A DNA stretch of 64,000 bases from Eledone cirrhosa (lineage: Eukaryota). A program made the position numbers and the translations under genes. Shown in pieces: positions 999-36,101 of the stretch (positions within the stretch are counted from its first letter, which is position 1; each line of letters opens with the position of its first letter). The stretch spans positions 235,848,001 to 235,912,000 of the forward strand of contig OZ024743.1 in NCBI GenBank assembly GCA_964016885.1, written 5' to 3'. The notes under the pieces are model-generated. The model searched no databases and was not told the DNA's origin. It worked only from the letters and a program-made list of their open reading frames with translations.

Positions 999-1401
<403 letters not shown>

Positions 1402-1600
1402 GGATACACAATACTACTTTATGTATATTTTGTTTATAACAAAATACTTGAAATTTTGTACTTGGCTCCCAGCTACTGGGTTAAGAACCGCTGACTATAT
1501 ATATAGAAATATGTGTGTGCATATATATATATATGTGTATGATTGTGCAGATGTATATATGTGTGTGTGTGTGTGCATATATATATATATATGTGTGTGT

Positions 1601-2007
1601 CATCATCATCATCATTTTACGTCCGCTTTTCCCTGCTTGCAAGGGTGGGACGGGTCTTATTCAGCACAGCATCTCTCCACTCGTCACGGTCCCTCGTCAT
1701 CTCCACCGTGAGCTTCAATGATCTGAGGTCTGTTCTCACCACCTCCGCCCATGTTTTTCGTGGTCTACCTCTACCACGTCTTCCCTCAACTGGCATTTCC
1801 TGGCACTTCTTCACCCATCGGTCATCCTCCATGCGCATCACATGTCCATACCACCTCAGTCTCCTCTCCCGTACACTACATTCTATCCCTCTCAGACACA
1901 GTTTCTCTCTCAACACATTTATGCTGGGTCGTTCACGCACATTTACACTGCACATCCAACGGAGCATGCTTGCCTCATTTCTCTCCAGCCGTCGCATATC
2001 CTCTGCG
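1601..2007 (-). mobile_element. RTE LINE family A, 5'-truncated 3' end
   Basis: ORF 1617-1997 ([15 protein letters not shown]...[12 protein letters not shown]...GRPRKTW) is nearly identical to 38365-38770; (CAT)n tail at the left. Confidence 0.95.
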
Positions 2008-2165
2008 GTGTGTGTATCATATCATATTATTTATGTTCATATACGGTAGAAAAGCATTAGCCAAGGTTTCAAGACCCAAATTTGATGATAGCACCAGAAT
2101 ACAAGAGGCATCAAATTTGTGACCTTTCTCCAGGTGTTTATATGATTTTATCAACACACACACAC

Positions 2166-2657
2166 ATCATCACCGTTTTACGTCTGTTCTTCCACGCTAG
2201 CATCGGTTAGACAGGTTGCCCTGTTGTGGGCAGTGTCCGGTCGGCTGACCTTGTCTTGCTCATACAGGAACTGATTCTGGCTTGATTTCTACAGCTGGAT
2301 GCCCTTCCTAACACCAACCTCATTTACAGTGAGTGCTGGGTGCTTTTGTTCCGTGGGGCCTACACGTCCACTTTACAGTGTGGGCTGGGTGCTTTTTTGC
2401 AGTGGCACCTCCACGACCACTTTTCAGTGGGAGGGGTGGGGGCATATTGTCTATATGTTTCAGCTTTGGCTTGTACCCTTGGGGGGTCGGGTCTTCTGTA
2501 TTACTGTGTGACACCAGAGGTCACGGTCGTGTGTCATCGCCCTTGAGAGGTGTAATTGGTTAAGGTCGGCTTTTATCACCTCATCCCAGGTCTCCCCACT
2601 CCGCGGCTTCCATCGACTTCTAGTGCTCTGCACCTTTTTAAACAGCTGTCATCTTTC
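2166..2657 (-). mobile_element. RTE LINE family C, 3' end and 3' UTR
   Basis: Reverse complement matches 48310-48810 (KRCRALEVDGSRGVGR...WDEVIKADL plus UTR); (CAT)n tail. Confidence 0.9.
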
Positions 2658-2674
2658 CATACATTATATATTCT

Positions 2675-2950
2675 AGGTGCCCGTCACTAATGGCTATGGA
2701 TTAACACCTAGAAAGCAGTCACTCCTGTATACCAGTCTCTCCCCACCACTGATGTTGTCCAAGGGAAAGGCAATGACTGATACAGCTTGGCACCAGTGAC
2801 GTCACAACACATTTCTATAGCTGACTGAACTGGAGCAATGTGAAATAAAGTGTCTTGCTCAAGGACACAACACACAGCCCGGTCCGAGAATTGAACTCAC
2901 AACCTTTCGATTGCACACCCAAAGCTCTAACCACTTGGCCATGCACCTTC
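2675..2950 (-). mobile_element. tRNA-derived CORE-like SINE with RTE-related body
   Basis: Antisense tRNA-like head and CORE-like block, plus body GATGTTGTCCAAGGGAAAGGCAATG...CAGCTTGGCACCAGTGACGTC shared with 6633-6828 and 20440-20655. Confidence 0.8.
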
Positions 2951-2959
2951 TCTCTCTCA

Positions 2960-3297
2960 CACATATGTATCTATGTGTGTGTACCTGTATGTATCAGTAT
3001 GTGTCTATATGTCTGTGTGTGTGTGTGTCTCTCTGTAAATATGTATATCTATATGTCTATGTGTTTCCCTGTAAATATGTATGTGTCTATATGTCTGTAT
3101 GAAAGTGTGTGTGTCTCCCTGTAAATATGTATGCGTCTATGTGTCTCTATGTGTTTCCCTGTAAATATGTATGTGTCTATATGTCTGTATGAAAGTGTGT
3201 GTGTGTGTGTCTCCCTGTAAATATGTATGTGTCTATATGTGTGTGTGTCCCTGTAAATATGTATGTGTCTATGTCTGTATGAAAGTGTATGTGTGTC
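2960..3297. repeat. Degenerate GT-rich minisatellite (CCCTGTAAATATGTATGTGTCTAT units)
   Basis: The unit recurs about 6 times. Confidence 0.8.
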
Positions 3298-3465
3298 CAG
3301 AACATAAAAGCTAGTGACTCTGTATCAACCCAGAAGGGGCCATCAGCAGGATTTGAACTCAGAATGTAAAGAGTCCCAATAAATAACAATGGCAGGCAGT
3401 TTAGTAATTAGTCCACTCTACACCGTCATCTCAGTATTTAGTCCACTGTTCACACTTTCATAAAT

Positions 3466-3852
3466 GGAGGCACATGGCTTAGTGGTTAGAACATTGGCCT
3501 TGCAATCGAAAGGTTGTGAGTTCAATTCTCAGACCGGGTGATGTGTTGTTTCCTTGAGCAAGACACTTTATTTCACATTGCTCCAGTTCACTCAGCTGTA
3601 GAAATGAGATGATAGGAACTGGGGTCCCTATCATTCCACTGCAAAATGGTCGTGGAGGTGCCACGGCAAAAAAGCACCCAGCCCACACTGTAAAATGGTC
3701 GTGTAGGTGCCACGGCAAAAAAAGCACCCAGTACTCACTGTAAATGAGGTTGGTGTTAGGAAGGGCATCCAGCTGTAGAAATCAAGCCAGAATCAGTTCC
3801 TGTCCCACTCTTGCAAGCAGGGAAAAGCGGACGTAAAATGATGATGATGATG
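3466..3852 (+). mobile_element. Full-length CORE-like SINE with RTE-derived 3' tail (family A terminus)
   Basis: A box TGGCTTAGTGG, B box GTTCAATTC, CORE-like TCCTTGAGCAAGACACTT, then a family C UTR segment, then CTTGCAAGCAGGGAAAAGCGGACGTAAAA(TGA)n. Confidence 0.9.
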
Positions 3853-29402: not shown

Positions 29403-30485
29403 ATAGTATAATGGTGTGGTGGTTGTGTCATAGTATAATGGTGTGGTGTGGTGGTTGTGTCATAGTGTAATGGTGTGGTGGTTATGTCATAGCATAATGG
29501 TGTGGTGGTTATGTCATAGTATAATGGTGTGGTGTGGTGGTTGTGTCATAGTATAATGGTGTGGTGTGGTGGTTGTGTCATACTATAATGGTGTGGTGTG
29601 GTGGTTGTGTCATAGTATAATGGTGTGGTGTGGTGGTTGTGTCATAGTATAATGGTGTGGTGTGGTAGCAGAGCACAATGGTATGGCATAGTGACTTAGC
29701 ACATTGGTTATATAGTAACACTAGGTGATACATGGTAGTATAATGATTATAGAGTAGCAGCAATGGTATAGTGTGGTGACAGAGCACAATGGTATGGTGT
29801 GGTGCCATACCACAATGGTATAGAGCAGTTCCATACCACAATGGTATGGCAGGGTGTCATAATATAATGGTATGGTGTCATACCACAATGATATGGGGTA
29901 GAGTCATACGAATATGGTATTTTTTGGTGCCACAATACATTGGTTTACAGAGTGTACCGGGTGCATTTTATTGTGGCCCCAGCACAACCCTGAAGATTTC
30001 CCCTATGTCAGTTTGTTCAATACCAACTTACAGGGGCTACTGAGTGACTCCCATATGTGTGTCGAACCCATGCAAGCATGGAAAAACAGATGTACAACAG
30101 TGATGATATATGTATATGTGTGTCTGTGTGTGTGTGTGTGTATGTGTGTGTAATTAGCGACAACAGTGATGATATATGTATGTATATGTGTGTGTGTAAT
30201 TAGTTACAAGGTACTTAAGTTTTGTTGGGTTATACTCCCCAACTTATCCAGCCTGTCATATAAACCATATTTAACTCATCCTATGGACTAAGTGCTCTTA
30301 TCCTTGGATATTTATATCAAACTTGTACTACTGTATATATATATATATATATATGCAAAAGTTTTATTTGAAATTGTTGGGATACAACAAGTAAATATTT
30401 TATAACTGATATAAAACACTCGACAAGTTTTTGGAGTAGATATACGATATTAAATAAATGGAAATTATATTTATAAAACCATATT

Positions 30486-30550
30486 TATTTCATTATACAT
30501 ATTTCAGGGATACCAAATTAAAATATGGCATGCCTTCGTCAGATAAAATA
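30486..30550 (-). ncRNA. Type I hammerhead ribozyme motif (copy 1a)
   Basis: Exact reverse complement of 30626-30690. Confidence 0.75.
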
Positions 30551-30625
30551 CAAGACAGCTTCCAAAAATAATGGTTGCTTCTAATAGGGTACGTCAAAAT
30601 TATTTATAAAACTGTTTATATATTG

Positions 30626-30690
30626 TATTTTATCTGACGAAGGCATGCCATATTTTAATTTGGTATCCCTGAAATATGTATAATGAAATA
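30626..30690 (+). ncRNA. Type I hammerhead ribozyme motif (copy 1b)
   Basis: Helix I TATTTTAT/ATGAAATA; CTGACGA; helix II AGG.ATGCCA/TGGTAT.CCT; GAAA; short near-palindromic helix III TATGTA; TA cleavage site. Confidence 0.75.
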
Positions 30691-30800
30691 AATATGGTTT
30701 TATAAATATAGTTTCCATTTATTTAATACCATATATATATATATATATATATATATTTCGTTTCTGAATTCCTATTGGCAACATGACCCTCCCAAAGTAT

Positions 30801-30831
<31 letters not shown>

Positions 30832-30918
30832 GTCACTCTAACCTGTCTTACATCTACATACGGAAAGTGGTATTAATTGTGGATTATGGTGATGATGCTG
30901 CTGTATATATATATATGG

Positions 30919-30948
<30 letters not shown>

Positions 30949-30949
<1 letters not shown>

Positions 30950-31001
30950 AGATTCTACAGTACTAGAACTGTTTCATTCTTTAGAAATCATCAGGAATCT
31001 C
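30949..31001 (-). ncRNA. Type I hammerhead ribozyme motif (copy 2a)
   Basis: Minus strand reads AGATTC CTGATGA TTTCTAAAGAAT GAAA CAGT-TCTAGT-ACTG TA GAATCT. Confidence 0.8.
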
Positions 31002-31025
31002 TATATATATATATGGTATATATAT

Positions 31026-31132
31026 CATCATCATCATCATCATCATCATCAGGTTTAGCGTCCGTGTTCCACGCTTGCATGGGTTTGGACGGGGGTTTTC
31101 CCACTTGAGGCAAGAGTGGTTGTCTTGCTCGC
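31026..31132 (-). mobile_element. RTE family B 3' tail only (~105 bp)
   Basis: (CAT)n then CGTCCGTGTTCCACGCTTGCATGGG...GTCTTGCTCGC. Confidence 0.9.
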
Positions 31133-31170
31133 ATATATATATATATATATATATACCATATATATATAGA

Positions 31171-31223
31171 GAGATTCCTGATGATTTCTAAAGAATGAAA
31201 CAGTTCTAGTCCTGTAGAATCTC
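31171..31223 (+). ncRNA. Type I hammerhead ribozyme motif (copy 2b)
   Basis: Helix I GAGATTC/GAATCTC (7 bp); CTGATGA; helix II TTC/GAA with a U-U closing mismatch; GAAA; helix III CAG/CTG; TA. Confidence 0.8.
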
Positions 31224-31265
<42 letters not shown>

Positions 31266-31649
31266 ATATATATATATATATACAGCAGCATCATCACCAT
31301 AATCCATAATTAATACCACTTTTCGTATGTAGAGGTAAGACAGGTTTTGTCCACCCACAACATGTCAGATTAAGTTTTCAAATCTTCCAGTTCTAAACAG
31401 AAGAGAAAGTAAGGTGGTAGCATGCTGGTGGTGGGCAGTGGAGATTGTGTGTGGATAGTAGTGGTGGTGGTAGCAGGCAGTAAAGGCTGTCTGTCTGTGT
31501 AATCATTATTCACCTTACCATGATTGTGTTGGACAAGCCCTCTCCAGTCCTGGCTGCCTTCACAAATATTCCTTTGTCCTCTTCTCCCTGAGTTTCATTA
31601 AGATCAGTTCTAATCACCTGGCTCTATCTACAGTCACCTGTCATCTGGT

Positions 31650-34600
31650 TGGTACCTAGCTTCAGCCACTCTAACCATCAGTAAATCTAACCTGGTACTT
31701 AGCTCCAGACACTCTAACCATCAGTAAATCTAACCTGGTACCTAGATTCAGACACTTTAACCATCAGTAAATCTAACCTGGTACCTAGCTTCAGCCACTC
31801 TAACCATCAGTAAATCTAACCTGCTACCTAGCCCCAGCCTCTCTAACCATCAGTAAATCTAACCTGGTACCTAGATCCAGACACTCTAGCCATCAGTAAA
31901 TCTAACCTGGTACCTAGCTCCAGCCACTCTAACCATCAGTAAATCTAACCTGGTACCTAGATCCAGACACTCTAACCATCAGTAAATCTAAACTGGTACC
32001 TAGATTCAGACACTCTAACCATCAGTAAATCTAACCTGGTACCTAGATTCAGACACTTTAACCATCAGTAAATCTAACCTGGTACCTAGCTTCAGCCACT
32101 CTAACCATCAGTAAATCTAACCTGCTACCTAGCCCCAGCCTCTCTAACCATCAGTAAATCTAACCTGGTACCTAGATCCAGACACTCTAGCCATCAGTAA
32201 ATCTAACCTGGTACCTAGCTCCAGCCACTCTAACCATCAGTAAATCTAACCTGGTACCTAGATCCAGACACTCTAACCATCAGTAAATCTAAACTGGTAC
32301 CTAGATTCAGACACTCTAACCATCAGTAAATCTAACCTGGTACCTAGCTTCAGTCACTCTAACCATCAGTAAATCTAACCTGGTACCTAGCTCCAGCCAC
32401 TCTAACCATCAGGTCTAACCTGGTACCTAGCTCCAGCCACTCTAACCATCAGGTCTAACCTGGTACCTAGCTTCAGTCACTCTAACCATCAGTAAATCTA
32501 ACCTGGTACCTAGCTTCAGTCACTCTAGCCATCAGTAAATCTAACCTGGTACCTAGCTCCAGCCACTCTAACCATCAGGTCTAACCTGGTACCTAGCTTC
32601 AGTCACTCTAACCATCAGTAAATCTAACCTGGTACCTAGCTCCAGCCACTCTAACCATCAGTAAATCTAACCTGGTACCTAGCTTCAGTCACTCTAGCCA
32701 TCAGTAAATATAACCTGGTACCTAGCTCCAGCCACTCTAACCATCAGGTCAAACCTGGTACCTAGCTTCAACCACTCTAACCATCAGTAAATCTAACCTG
32801 GTACCTAGCTTCAGTCACTCTAACCATCAGTAAATCTAACCTGGTACCTAGCTCCAGCCACTCTAACCATCAGTAAATCTAACCTGGTACCTAGATTCAG
32901 TCACTCTAACCATCAGTAAATCTAACCTGGTACCTAGCTTCAGCCACTCTAGCCATCAGTAAATCTAACCTGGTACCTAGCTCCAGCCACTCTAACCATC
33001 AGGTCTAACCTGGTACCTAGCTTCAGTCACTCTAACCATCAGGTCTAACCTGGTACCTAGCTCCAGCCACTCTAACCATCAGTAAATCTAACCTGGTACC
33101 TAGCTTCAGACACTGTAACCATCAGCAAATCTAACCTGGTACCTAGCTCCAACCACTCTAACCATCAGTAAATCTAACCTGCTACCTAGCTTTAGTCACT
33201 CTAACCATCAGTAAATCTAACCTGGTACCTAGCTCCAGCCACTCTAACCATCAGTAAATCTAACCTGGTACCTAGCTTCAGACACTGTAACCATCAGCAA
33301 ATCTAACCTGGTACCTAGCTCCAACCACTCTAACCATCAGTAAATCTAACCTGCTACCTAGCTTTAGTCACTCTAACCATCAGTAAATCTAACCTGGTAC
33401 CTAGCTTCAGCCACTCTAGCCATCAGTAAATCGAACACGGTACCTAGCTCCAGCCACTCTAACCATCAGGTCTGACCTGGTACCTAGCTTCAGCCACTCT
33501 AACCATCAGTAAATCTAACCTGGTACCTCGCTTCAGTCACTCTAGCCATCAGTAAATCTAACCTGGTACCTAGATCCAGACACTCTAACCATCAGTAAAT
33601 CTAACCTGGTACCTAGCTTCAGAGACTCTAGCCATGAGTAAATCTAACCTGGTACCTAGCTCCAGCCACTCTAACCATCAGGTCTAACCTGGTACATAGC
33701 TTCAGCCACTCTAACCACCAGGTCTAACCTGGTACCTAGCTTCAGTCACTCTAACCATCAGTAAATCTAACCTGGTACCTAGCTCCAGCCACTCTAACCA
33801 TCAGTAAATCTAACCTGGTACCTAGCTTCAGTCACTCTAGCCATCAGTAAATATAACCTGGTACCTAGCTTCAGTCACTCTAGCCATCAGTAAATCTAAC
33901 CTGGTACCTAGATTCAGTCACTCTAACCATCAGTAAATCTAACCTGGTACCTAGCTTCAGCCACTCTAGCCATCAGTAAATCTAACCTGGTACCTAGCTC
34001 CAGCCACTCTAACCATCAGGTCTAACCTGGTACCTAGCTTCAGTCACTCTAACCATCAGGTCTAACCTGGTACCTAGCTCCAGCCACTCTAACCATCAGT
34101 AAATCTAACCTGGTACCTAGCTTCAGACACTGTAACCATCAGCAAATCTAACCTGGTACCTAGCTCCAACCACTCTAACCATCAGTAAATCTAACCTGGT
34201 ACCTAGCTTCAGACACTGTAACCATCAGCAAATCTAACCTGGTACCTAGCTCCAACCACTCTAACCATCAGTAAATCTAACCTGCTACCTAGCTTTAGTC
34301 ACTCTAACCATCAGTAAATCTAACCTGGTACCTAGCTTCAGCCACTCTAGCCATCAGTAAATCTAACACGGTACCTAGCTCCAGCCACTCTAACCATCAG
34401 GTCTGACCTGGTACCTAGCTTCAGCCACTCTAACCATCAGTAAATCTAACCTGGTACCTCGCTTCAGTCACTCTAGCCATCAGTAAATCTAACCTGGTAC
34501 CTAGATCCAGACACTCTAACCATCAGTAAATCTAACCTGGTACCTAGCTTCAGAGACTCTAGCCATGAGTAAATCTAACCTGGTACCTAGCTCCAGCCAC

Positions 34601-36101
34601 TCTAACCATCAGGTCTAACCTGGTACATAGCTTCAGCCACTCTAACCACCAGGTCTAACCTGGTACCTAGCTTCAGCCACTCTAACCATCAGTAAATATA
34701 ACCTGGTCCCTATCTTCAGTCACTCTAACCATCAGGTCTAACCTGGTACCTAGATTCAGACAATCTAACCATCAGTAAATCTAACCTGGTACCTAGCTTC
34801 AGCCACTCTAACCATCAGTAAATCTAACCCGGTACCTAGCTCCAGCCACTCTAACTATCAGTAAATCTAACCTGGTACCTAGCTTTAGTCACTCTAGCCA
34901 TCAGTAAATCTAACCTGGTACCTAGCTTCAGTCACTCTAACCATCAGGTCTAACCTGGTACCTAGCTCCAGCCACTCTAACCATCAGGTCTAACCTGGTA
35001 CATAGCTTCAGCCACTCTAACCATCAGGTCTAACCTGGTACCTAGCTCCAGCCACTCTAACCATCAGTAAATATAACCTGGTCCCTAGCTTCAGTCACTC
35101 TAACAGTCATGTCTAACCTGGTACCTAGATTCAGACACTCTAACCATCAGTAAATCTAACCTGGTACCTAGCTTCAGACACTCTAGCCATCAGTAAATCT
35201 AACCTGGTACCTAGCTCCAGCCACTCTAACCATCAGGTCTAACCTGGTACCTAGCTTCAGTCACTCTAACCATCAGGTCTAACCTGGTACCTAGCTCCAG
35301 CCACTCTAACCATCAGTAAATCTAATCTGGTACCTAGCTTCAGACACTCTAGCCATCAGTAAATCTAACCTGGTATCTAGCTTCAGTCACTCTAACCATC
35401 AGTAAATCTAACTTGGTATCTAGCCTCAGCCACTCTAACCATCAGTAAATCTAACCTGGTACCTAGATTCAGACACTCTAACCATCAGTAAATCTAATCT
35501 GGTACCTAGCTTCAGACACTCTAGCCATTAGTAAATCTAACCTGGTACCTAGCTCCAGCCACTCTAACCATCAGGTCTAACCTGGTACCTAGCTTCAGCC
35601 ACTCTAACCATCAGTAAATCTAACCTGGTACCTAGCTCCAGCTCCTCTAACCATCAGTAAATCTAACCTGGTAGCTAGCTCCAGCCACTCTAGCCATCAG
35701 TAAATCTAACCTGGTACCTAGCTTCAGCCACTCTAACCATCAGTAAATCTAACCTGGTACCTAGCTCCAGCCACTCTAACCATCAGGTCTAACCTGGTAC
35801 CTAGCTCTAGTCACTCTAACCATCAGTAAATCTAACCTGGTACCTAGCTTCAGTCACTCTAACCATCAGTAAATCTAACCTGGTACCCAGCTCCAGCCAC
35901 TCTAGCCATCAGTAAATCTAACCTGGTACCTAGCTTCAGTCACTCTAGCAATCAGTAAATCTAACCTGGTACCTAGCTTCAGACACTCTAGCAATCAGTA
36001 AATCTAACCTGGTACCTAGCTTCAGACACTCTAGCCATCAGTAAATCTAACCTGGTACCTAGCTCCAGCCACTCTAACCATCAGTAAATCTAACCTGGTA
36101 C
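31650..36101. repeat. 43/40-bp satellite array (~4.4 kb, roughly 100 units)
   Basis: Unit CTAACCATCAGTAAATCTAACCTGGTACCTAGCTCCAGCCACT; the short variant has CAGGTCTAACC. Confidence 0.97.

Follow-up and report, generated by a model that had tools for sequence, protein, structure and literature searches.

A 507-bp palindrome in the genome of Eledone cirrhosa probably arose through break repair, by a fold-back at a (TA)n tract, and acquired a LINE in its central TA only later; we put the probability of this reading at about 0.6. The window (the whole stretch of DNA that was analysed, 64,000 nucleotides of contig OZ024743.1) contains a left arm at 30840-31025 and a right arm at 31133-31346 that are reverse complements, as confirmed by alignment. 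BLAST of arm against arm gave 90% identity over 200 columns (E 9e-76), with gaps confined to TA tracts and six substitutions in 123 compared positions (about 125). The inverted duplication noticed in an earlier sequence-only reading, with few substitutions and some differences in TA length, is therefore real. Three of the substitutions (30852, 30863 and 30879) fall within the unique 64 bp of the left arm and three (30949, 30961 and 31003) in or beside its repeat part, while the TA tracts of the left and right arms measure 13/17, 28/38, 13/(TC+11) and 9/23. From left to right, the locus is composed as follows:

30805-30831: TA tract, 27 bp; likely break site that received the inverted copy
30832-30839, plus strand: 8-bp filler that separates the left arm from the TA tract; probable templated insertion
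30840-30903, plus strand: unique 64 bp of the left arm, with 3 differences from the right copy; probable new copy
30904-30946: TA13-GG-TA28, mirrored in the right arm
30947-31001, minus strand: left hammerhead-motif repeat end, high-copy, Penelope-like by resemblance
31002-31025: TA13-GG-TA9, left half of the fold axis
31026-31132, minus strand: LINE 3' end, 5'-truncated, with a 26-bp (ATG)n tail plus 81 bp
31133-31170: TA23-CC-TA11-GA, right half of the fold axis
31171-31225, plus strand: right hammerhead-motif repeat end, carrying the family's commonest body sequence
31226-31282: TA38-CC-TA17, between the right repeat copy and the unique 64 bp
31283-31346, minus strand: unique 64 bp of the right arm, continuous with the unique right flank; probable original
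31650-36101, plus strand: 43-bp satellite; putative template of the filler

Each arm thus has three components: genome-unique sequence (64 bp), a TA tract with interruptions, and the end of a high-copy repeat (55 bp). The unique 64 bp had two matches in the whole genome (3.0 Gb), both at the palindrome. What had been described as an inverted copy of about 190 bp of target is indeed a copy, though the unique target is limited to 64 bp in each arm, with TA and repeat end making up the remainder; likewise, the spacer is LINE tail only, as had been proposed, but its length is 107 bp rather than 105 bp. We rejected an interpretation of the whole 507 bp as one MITE, as the outer 64 bp is single-locus and the flanks share no target duplication. 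The window contains a second inverted pair (30437-30553 and 30623-30739; 117 bp, 4 differences, 69-bp spacer), which belongs to another very high-copy family and is one of several inserts in the TA cluster at 30335-31282.

Probable fold-back at a TA tract and the direction of copying

An adjacent inverted copy of locus-specific DNA, as a local fold-back would leave, is present here, as is inverted microhomology at the fold axis, in the form of self-complementary TA9 and TA23 inside mirrored GG and CC. The GG/CC interruptions of the TA tracts are mirrored between the arms and the hammerhead repeat copies terminate at identical bases in both, which indicates that the hammerhead pair resulted from local duplication of one copy. 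The mirrored interruptions, the identical repeat junctions and the copying of unique DNA all bear out the earlier suggestion of fold-back or template-switch synthesis at self-complementary (TA)n.

The locus would have started as a TA tract with a CC interruption and one short hammerhead repeat, with unique DNA on its right. A break may have occurred in the leftmost TA, whose 3' end would have annealed to itself, since (TA)n is its own reverse complement, and synthesis from this end back along some 186 bp of the right flank would account for what the left arm now contains, namely both CC marks, the repeat and the 64 unique bases. The displaced strand may then have taken up eight satellite bases via microhomologies of 2 bp and 4 bp and joined the left TA end, after which the arms would have diverged to their present state. 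A young LINE that frequents TA may later have entered the TA at the centre, its truncation point being an internal ATA in agreement with the sequence there.

The left junction carries much of the information on polarity. The filler, together with 2 and 4 flanking bases (30830-30843), gives a 14-bp exact match to 43-bp satellite units at 33193, 33365, 34296 and 35808, 2.4-5 kb downstream. Satellite 13-mers occur outside the array at a background of 1.4e-5 per position, and the score of the junction against a slightly longer satellite stretch (30) was reached by 1 of 300 random 78-mers. The left breakpoint falls within the satellite match, as a templated filler would give, and we suggest that the satellite templated the filler. 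Satellite similarity continues in register for 7 of 8 further bases, and the filler region is possibly an old native satellite remnant, which would imply the opposite polarity. The array itself (31650-36101) comprises about 105 copies with higher-order periods of 301 and 126 bp.

The left arm, on the primer side of the LINE, looks like the new copy (odds of about 3 to 1). It is wedged in TA, as the new copy of the C7 control fold-back (L183, below) sits between two TA tracts. A fold-back coupled to the insertion of the LINE would make the right arm the new copy, because target-primed reverse transcription extends the plus strand from the left flank.

Small fold-backs centred on TA also occur without a LINE. 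Sampling of six contigs (1.564 Mb) yielded 152 inverted repeats with spacers up to 400 bp, 24 of them with at least 30 bases absent elsewhere in the sample, and three LINE-free fold-backs among 1,770 TA clusters:

L183, C7:40083326-40083439: LINE-free TA-centred fold-back, genome-unique
L156, C1:300011263-300011376: LINE-free TA-centred fold-back, genome-unique
L083, C4:236093498-236093631: LINE-free TA-centred fold-back, 51-bp, partly repeat end

The arms of the two genome-unique cases are 41-43 bp long and 95-98% identical. Two other candidates were set aside, one at C1:150086140 as a repeat family with 1,404 candidates and the other (C1b 66003) as weak. The census left out a 100-kb stretch that begins as a 19-bp satellite (C5:60000001-60100000), in which neither TA-type low-complexity DNA nor inverted repeats were found. 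If three cases in 1.564 Mb are extrapolated to about 5,700, TA palindromes may number several thousand genome-wide.

The LINE and its age relative to the arms

The spacer is made up of minus-strand LINE sequence, namely 81 bp of 3' UTR and a (CAT)n tail of 26 bp, and the ATA at the LINE 5' junction is common to the TA tract. The tail is 93-95% identical to other copies in the window and matches four other genomic copies at 100%; a pattern search for the subfamily found 3,964 exact 28-mer matches genome-wide. L254, a long member of this subfamily, codes for an AP endonuclease domain (PF03372, E 1.8e-10) and a reverse transcriptase domain (PF00078, E 1.4e-32), and its LINE protein (1191-3602, minus strand) has a PHD finger (PF00628, E 1.4e-5) directly after the latter. 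The element therefore has the features of an AP-endonuclease LINE, with both domains in the parent, a short-repeat 3' tail and 5' truncation, and its C-terminal motifs suggest a provisional place in the RTE clade. TA stands at the 3' junction in 15 of 35 subfamily copies. Among loci chosen by query (L003-L020), a frequent truncation point of the LINE lies 83-84 bp from the 3' end, at an internal ATA that agrees with the TA target. This frequency is biased by the choice of loci; in the unselected stretches the window copy alone has this truncation point. At L004, L008 and L013, two LINE 3' ends face each other tail to tail on either side of one TA tract.

Divergence suggests that the arms predate the LINE. 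The first 30 copies by position, of the 3,964 matches, differ from the subfamily majority at 147 of 24,223 positions (0.61%, range 0-2.4%), whereas the arms differ by ~4.8%, or about 2.4% per arm, a level reached by one of the 30 copies; the subfamily is about four times younger than the arms. If the arms had been made at insertion, ~1.5 differing sites would be expected against the six observed (P for at least 6 differences 0.005 pooled, 0.02-0.04 with per-copy rates), and the unique 64 bp alone gave P 0.044, so that the arms are not as young as the element (P 0.005-0.044), as coupling to target-primed reverse transcription would have them. The LINE tail alone is uninformative for dating (0 of 81 differences vs 6 of 250, P 0.19). 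Two of the six arm variants, in the left copy, recur in other members of the hammerhead family, and arm divergence could have been inflated by error-prone synthesis or by faster mutation of a hairpin. The arms of the TA-centred control fold-backs are likewise 2-5% apart.

The sequence-only reading had taken the LINE insertion itself to be the cause of the inverted copy. In such an event, an 83-nt cDNA ending in ATA would anneal to the TA of the primer strand, copy the left flank backwards and join the right flank. The position of the LINE exactly at the axis and the ATA/TA microhomology at its 5' junction favour this mechanism, and L1 insertions in cultured human cells offer precedents (PMC11702581, consulted in part). 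We nonetheless consider it unlikely: the subfamily is some four times younger than the arms, the filler makes the left junction look new, and comparable fold-backs exist without a LINE.

The sequence-only reading had also suggested a count of LINE tails with inverted flanks. A near-identical local inverted flank was found at 1 of 117 other LINE ends (76 from unselected stretches, 34 subfamily copies and 7 more) and was lacking at 116; its rate (95% range 0.02-4.7%) was no different from that of TA tracts without a LINE (3 of 1,770; Fisher P 0.23), the two tests being not identical. LINE ends left out for want of flank numbered 3 of 80 in the unselected stretches and 7 of 41 in the subfamily, and the 5' boundary of older, diverged ends in the unselected stretches is uncertain. 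Six further inverted flank matches (75-91%) were rejected as dispersed repeats or microsatellite mixes, comprising C4 279170, L014 and four at 75-84% (L218, L230, L261 and L267).

The one case, L260 (C1:31135123-31136154), is an 806-bp copy from the same young subfamily, 99.5% identical to L254, and carries on its 5' side a 56/57 inverted copy of its own 3' flank that is unique to the locus. This copy speaks for a coupled event. The TA tract that holds the LINE is enclosed by a 19-bp inverted pair unique to the locus, and the 5' side of the LINE also bears a partial direct copy and a 24-bp inverted copy of downstream DNA. The LINE lies off the axis of the 57-bp pair, within a multi-switch cluster that may be older than the LINE, which leaves L260 ambiguous. 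An existing palindrome at whose axis the LINE landed, named as an alternative in the sequence-only reading, fits our data better than the causal version; since no empty allele or orthologue was found in runs X1, X2, X21 and X22, this order of events is inferred.

The reverse order, in which the LINE was already in place and its 107 nt looped out between the two TA runs as a later break on the left folded back, is quite improbable. It agrees with a derived left arm and explains the central position without chance, and TA9 and TA23 around the tail do pair in a DNA fold (-21.4 kcal/mol). It needs a LINE at least as old as the arms, however, at 2.4% per arm, while the subfamily stands at 0.61% with 1 of 30 copies at 2.4%, and the probability of 0 differences in 81 is 0.14.

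The hammerhead family and the reads

The 55-bp repeat end, of which the genome holds 1,375 candidate copies, reads as a predicted type I hammerhead motif. Both arm copies satisfy a descriptor of the type I core with helices I-III closing on the cleavage triplet (6 matches in 964 kb, 0 in 3 shuffles), and helix I is altered on both sides in 3 of 40 motifs of the family. The minimum-energy structure from free folding is not the hammerhead, and of the 26 weak matches from an Rfam search none reached gathering level and none was a hammerhead. Since type I hammerhead motifs are described as typical of Penelope-like repeats (PMC4209133, in part), we call the family Penelope-like by resemblance. A Penelope-like element would carry a telomerase-like reverse transcriptase linked to a GIY-YIG endonuclease; the copies examined were all short, up to about 314 bp. 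TA13-GG-TA9 (31002-31025) is a direct repeat of the start of 30904-30946, possibly a target duplication of the hammerhead element. Elsewhere, inserts of the 135-bp hammerhead-bearing family in TA (L025-L052) occupy both strands asymmetrically, and in some of them a long arm is paired with a short one.

Could such an element have made the palindrome by its usual inverted insertion, capturing flank on the way? Its habits lend the idea some appeal, as pieces lie on both strands at 17 of 28 loci and an inverted hammerhead pair is present at 8 of 28, and inverted 5' copies are a known feature of Penelope-like elements (PMC8557442, in part). Unique flank, on the other hand, was copied at 0 of 28 loci (an inverted flank match of 75% at L032 proved to be another repeat), and native pairs are mostly asymmetric and meet at few bases, whereas here the ends are the same and GG/CC is mirrored. 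We therefore regard this origin as highly improbable, though a nick by a Penelope-like element could have supplied the break, which is compatible with fold-back repair.

Read data cover the right side of the locus, with no single read or assembled contig crossing all of it. The right arm and flank are unchanged in contigs of three runs from one sample (X17, X18 and X19) and in 15 RAD reads (9 and 6) of two other samples; in RAD runs X21 and X22 coverage is confined to the right arm, and in X1 and X2, from other organisms, to repeats. Neither left-arm alleles nor the left junction appeared in contigs or reads of 4/4 runs, in a contig search that skipped the TA-rich middle. The right-arm contigs stop at 31277 (X17, X19) and 31270 (X18), and these stops lend the left arm indirect support from this one sample, because a 31-mer graph must branch there if both arms exist. 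The RAD reads break off at an AATT site; the left arm is contained in an AATT fragment of 108 bp, which could have been lost from RAD data. Of the structure whose confirmation in raw long reads the sequence-only reading had called for, RAD reads and contigs show the right arm and flank, with contig stops that fit two arms. An assembly or read fold-back artefact, with no left arm in reality, is the least probable of the explanations weighed here: the silence of 4/4 runs on the left side would follow from it, but the substitutions and TA-length differences between the arms, the presence of the filler, the contig stops at predicted branch points and the possible loss of the RAD fragment all speak against it.

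Relation to known systems

Taken as a single locus, the palindrome shows no sign of function and counts as junk DNA. What makes it useful is its well-marked record, through TA interruptions, repeat junction and filler, of how (TA)n can seed small palindromes. AT/TA repeats are reported to be fragile and to form hairpins and cruciforms (PMC12972899, in part).

A more speculative and rather doubtful proposal is that a TA-frequenting LINE routinely copies its own flank in inverted form, in ~1% of germline insertions, with this locus and L260 as two cases. The conjectured route, to which we attach equally little confidence, is that truncated cDNA anneals to the TA of the primer strand and is extended backwards over tens to hundreds of bases. 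If true, this would be an inverted counterpart to direct target-site duplication, and the 3,964 young copies, being countable, would provide a natural germline data set on the resolution of LINE 5' junctions.

The closest LINE parallels come from L1 in cultured human cells, where three insertions with genomic inversions and three with locally templated DNA are reported, along with fold-back junctions bridged by cDNA, for which self-annealing of the cDNA end was proposed (PMC11702581). Our locus resembles these in having retro-element sequence at a fold-back junction; those fold-backs delimit large copy-number changes, whereas it is a short and resolved palindrome whose dating and polarity oppose a single event. 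In the literature, as far as it was covered, no germline case came up in which a LINE occupies the axis of so short and resolved an inverted duplication, though Figs S9-S10 of PMC11702581 may show one.

The repeat ends resemble the pLTRs of Penelope-like elements in their hammerhead core, three helices, TA insertion and frequent inverted pairs (see the covered parts of PMC4209133, PMC8557442, PMC11167929 and bioRxiv 10.64898/2026.07.22.740005). They differ in that local duplication gave rise to the mirrored pair here and that the family is known here from short copies. Short-range template-switch events are mostly short replacements, and at this palindrome a template switch at a replication fork would look the same as break repair. 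The likeness to such events is that a polymerase switch makes a local inverted copy (PMC5453318 and PMC7954356, both in part).

The nearest counterpart is break repair in yeast, where an end folds back on inverted microhomology, uses its own flank as template and is end-joined, so that a longer inverted repeat results; such fold-back inverted duplications reach about 150 bp (Yu et al. 2024, PMC11724301, in part). The palindrome has the same geometry. It differs from the yeast cases, as far as that source describes them, in coming from an animal genome assembly, in its length of 186 bp, in being primed by (TA)n, and in its satellite-matching filler and the LINE at its axis. Overall, it matches a local fold-back inverted duplication in those features that are open to testing, and fails the age test for coupling to target-primed reverse transcription.
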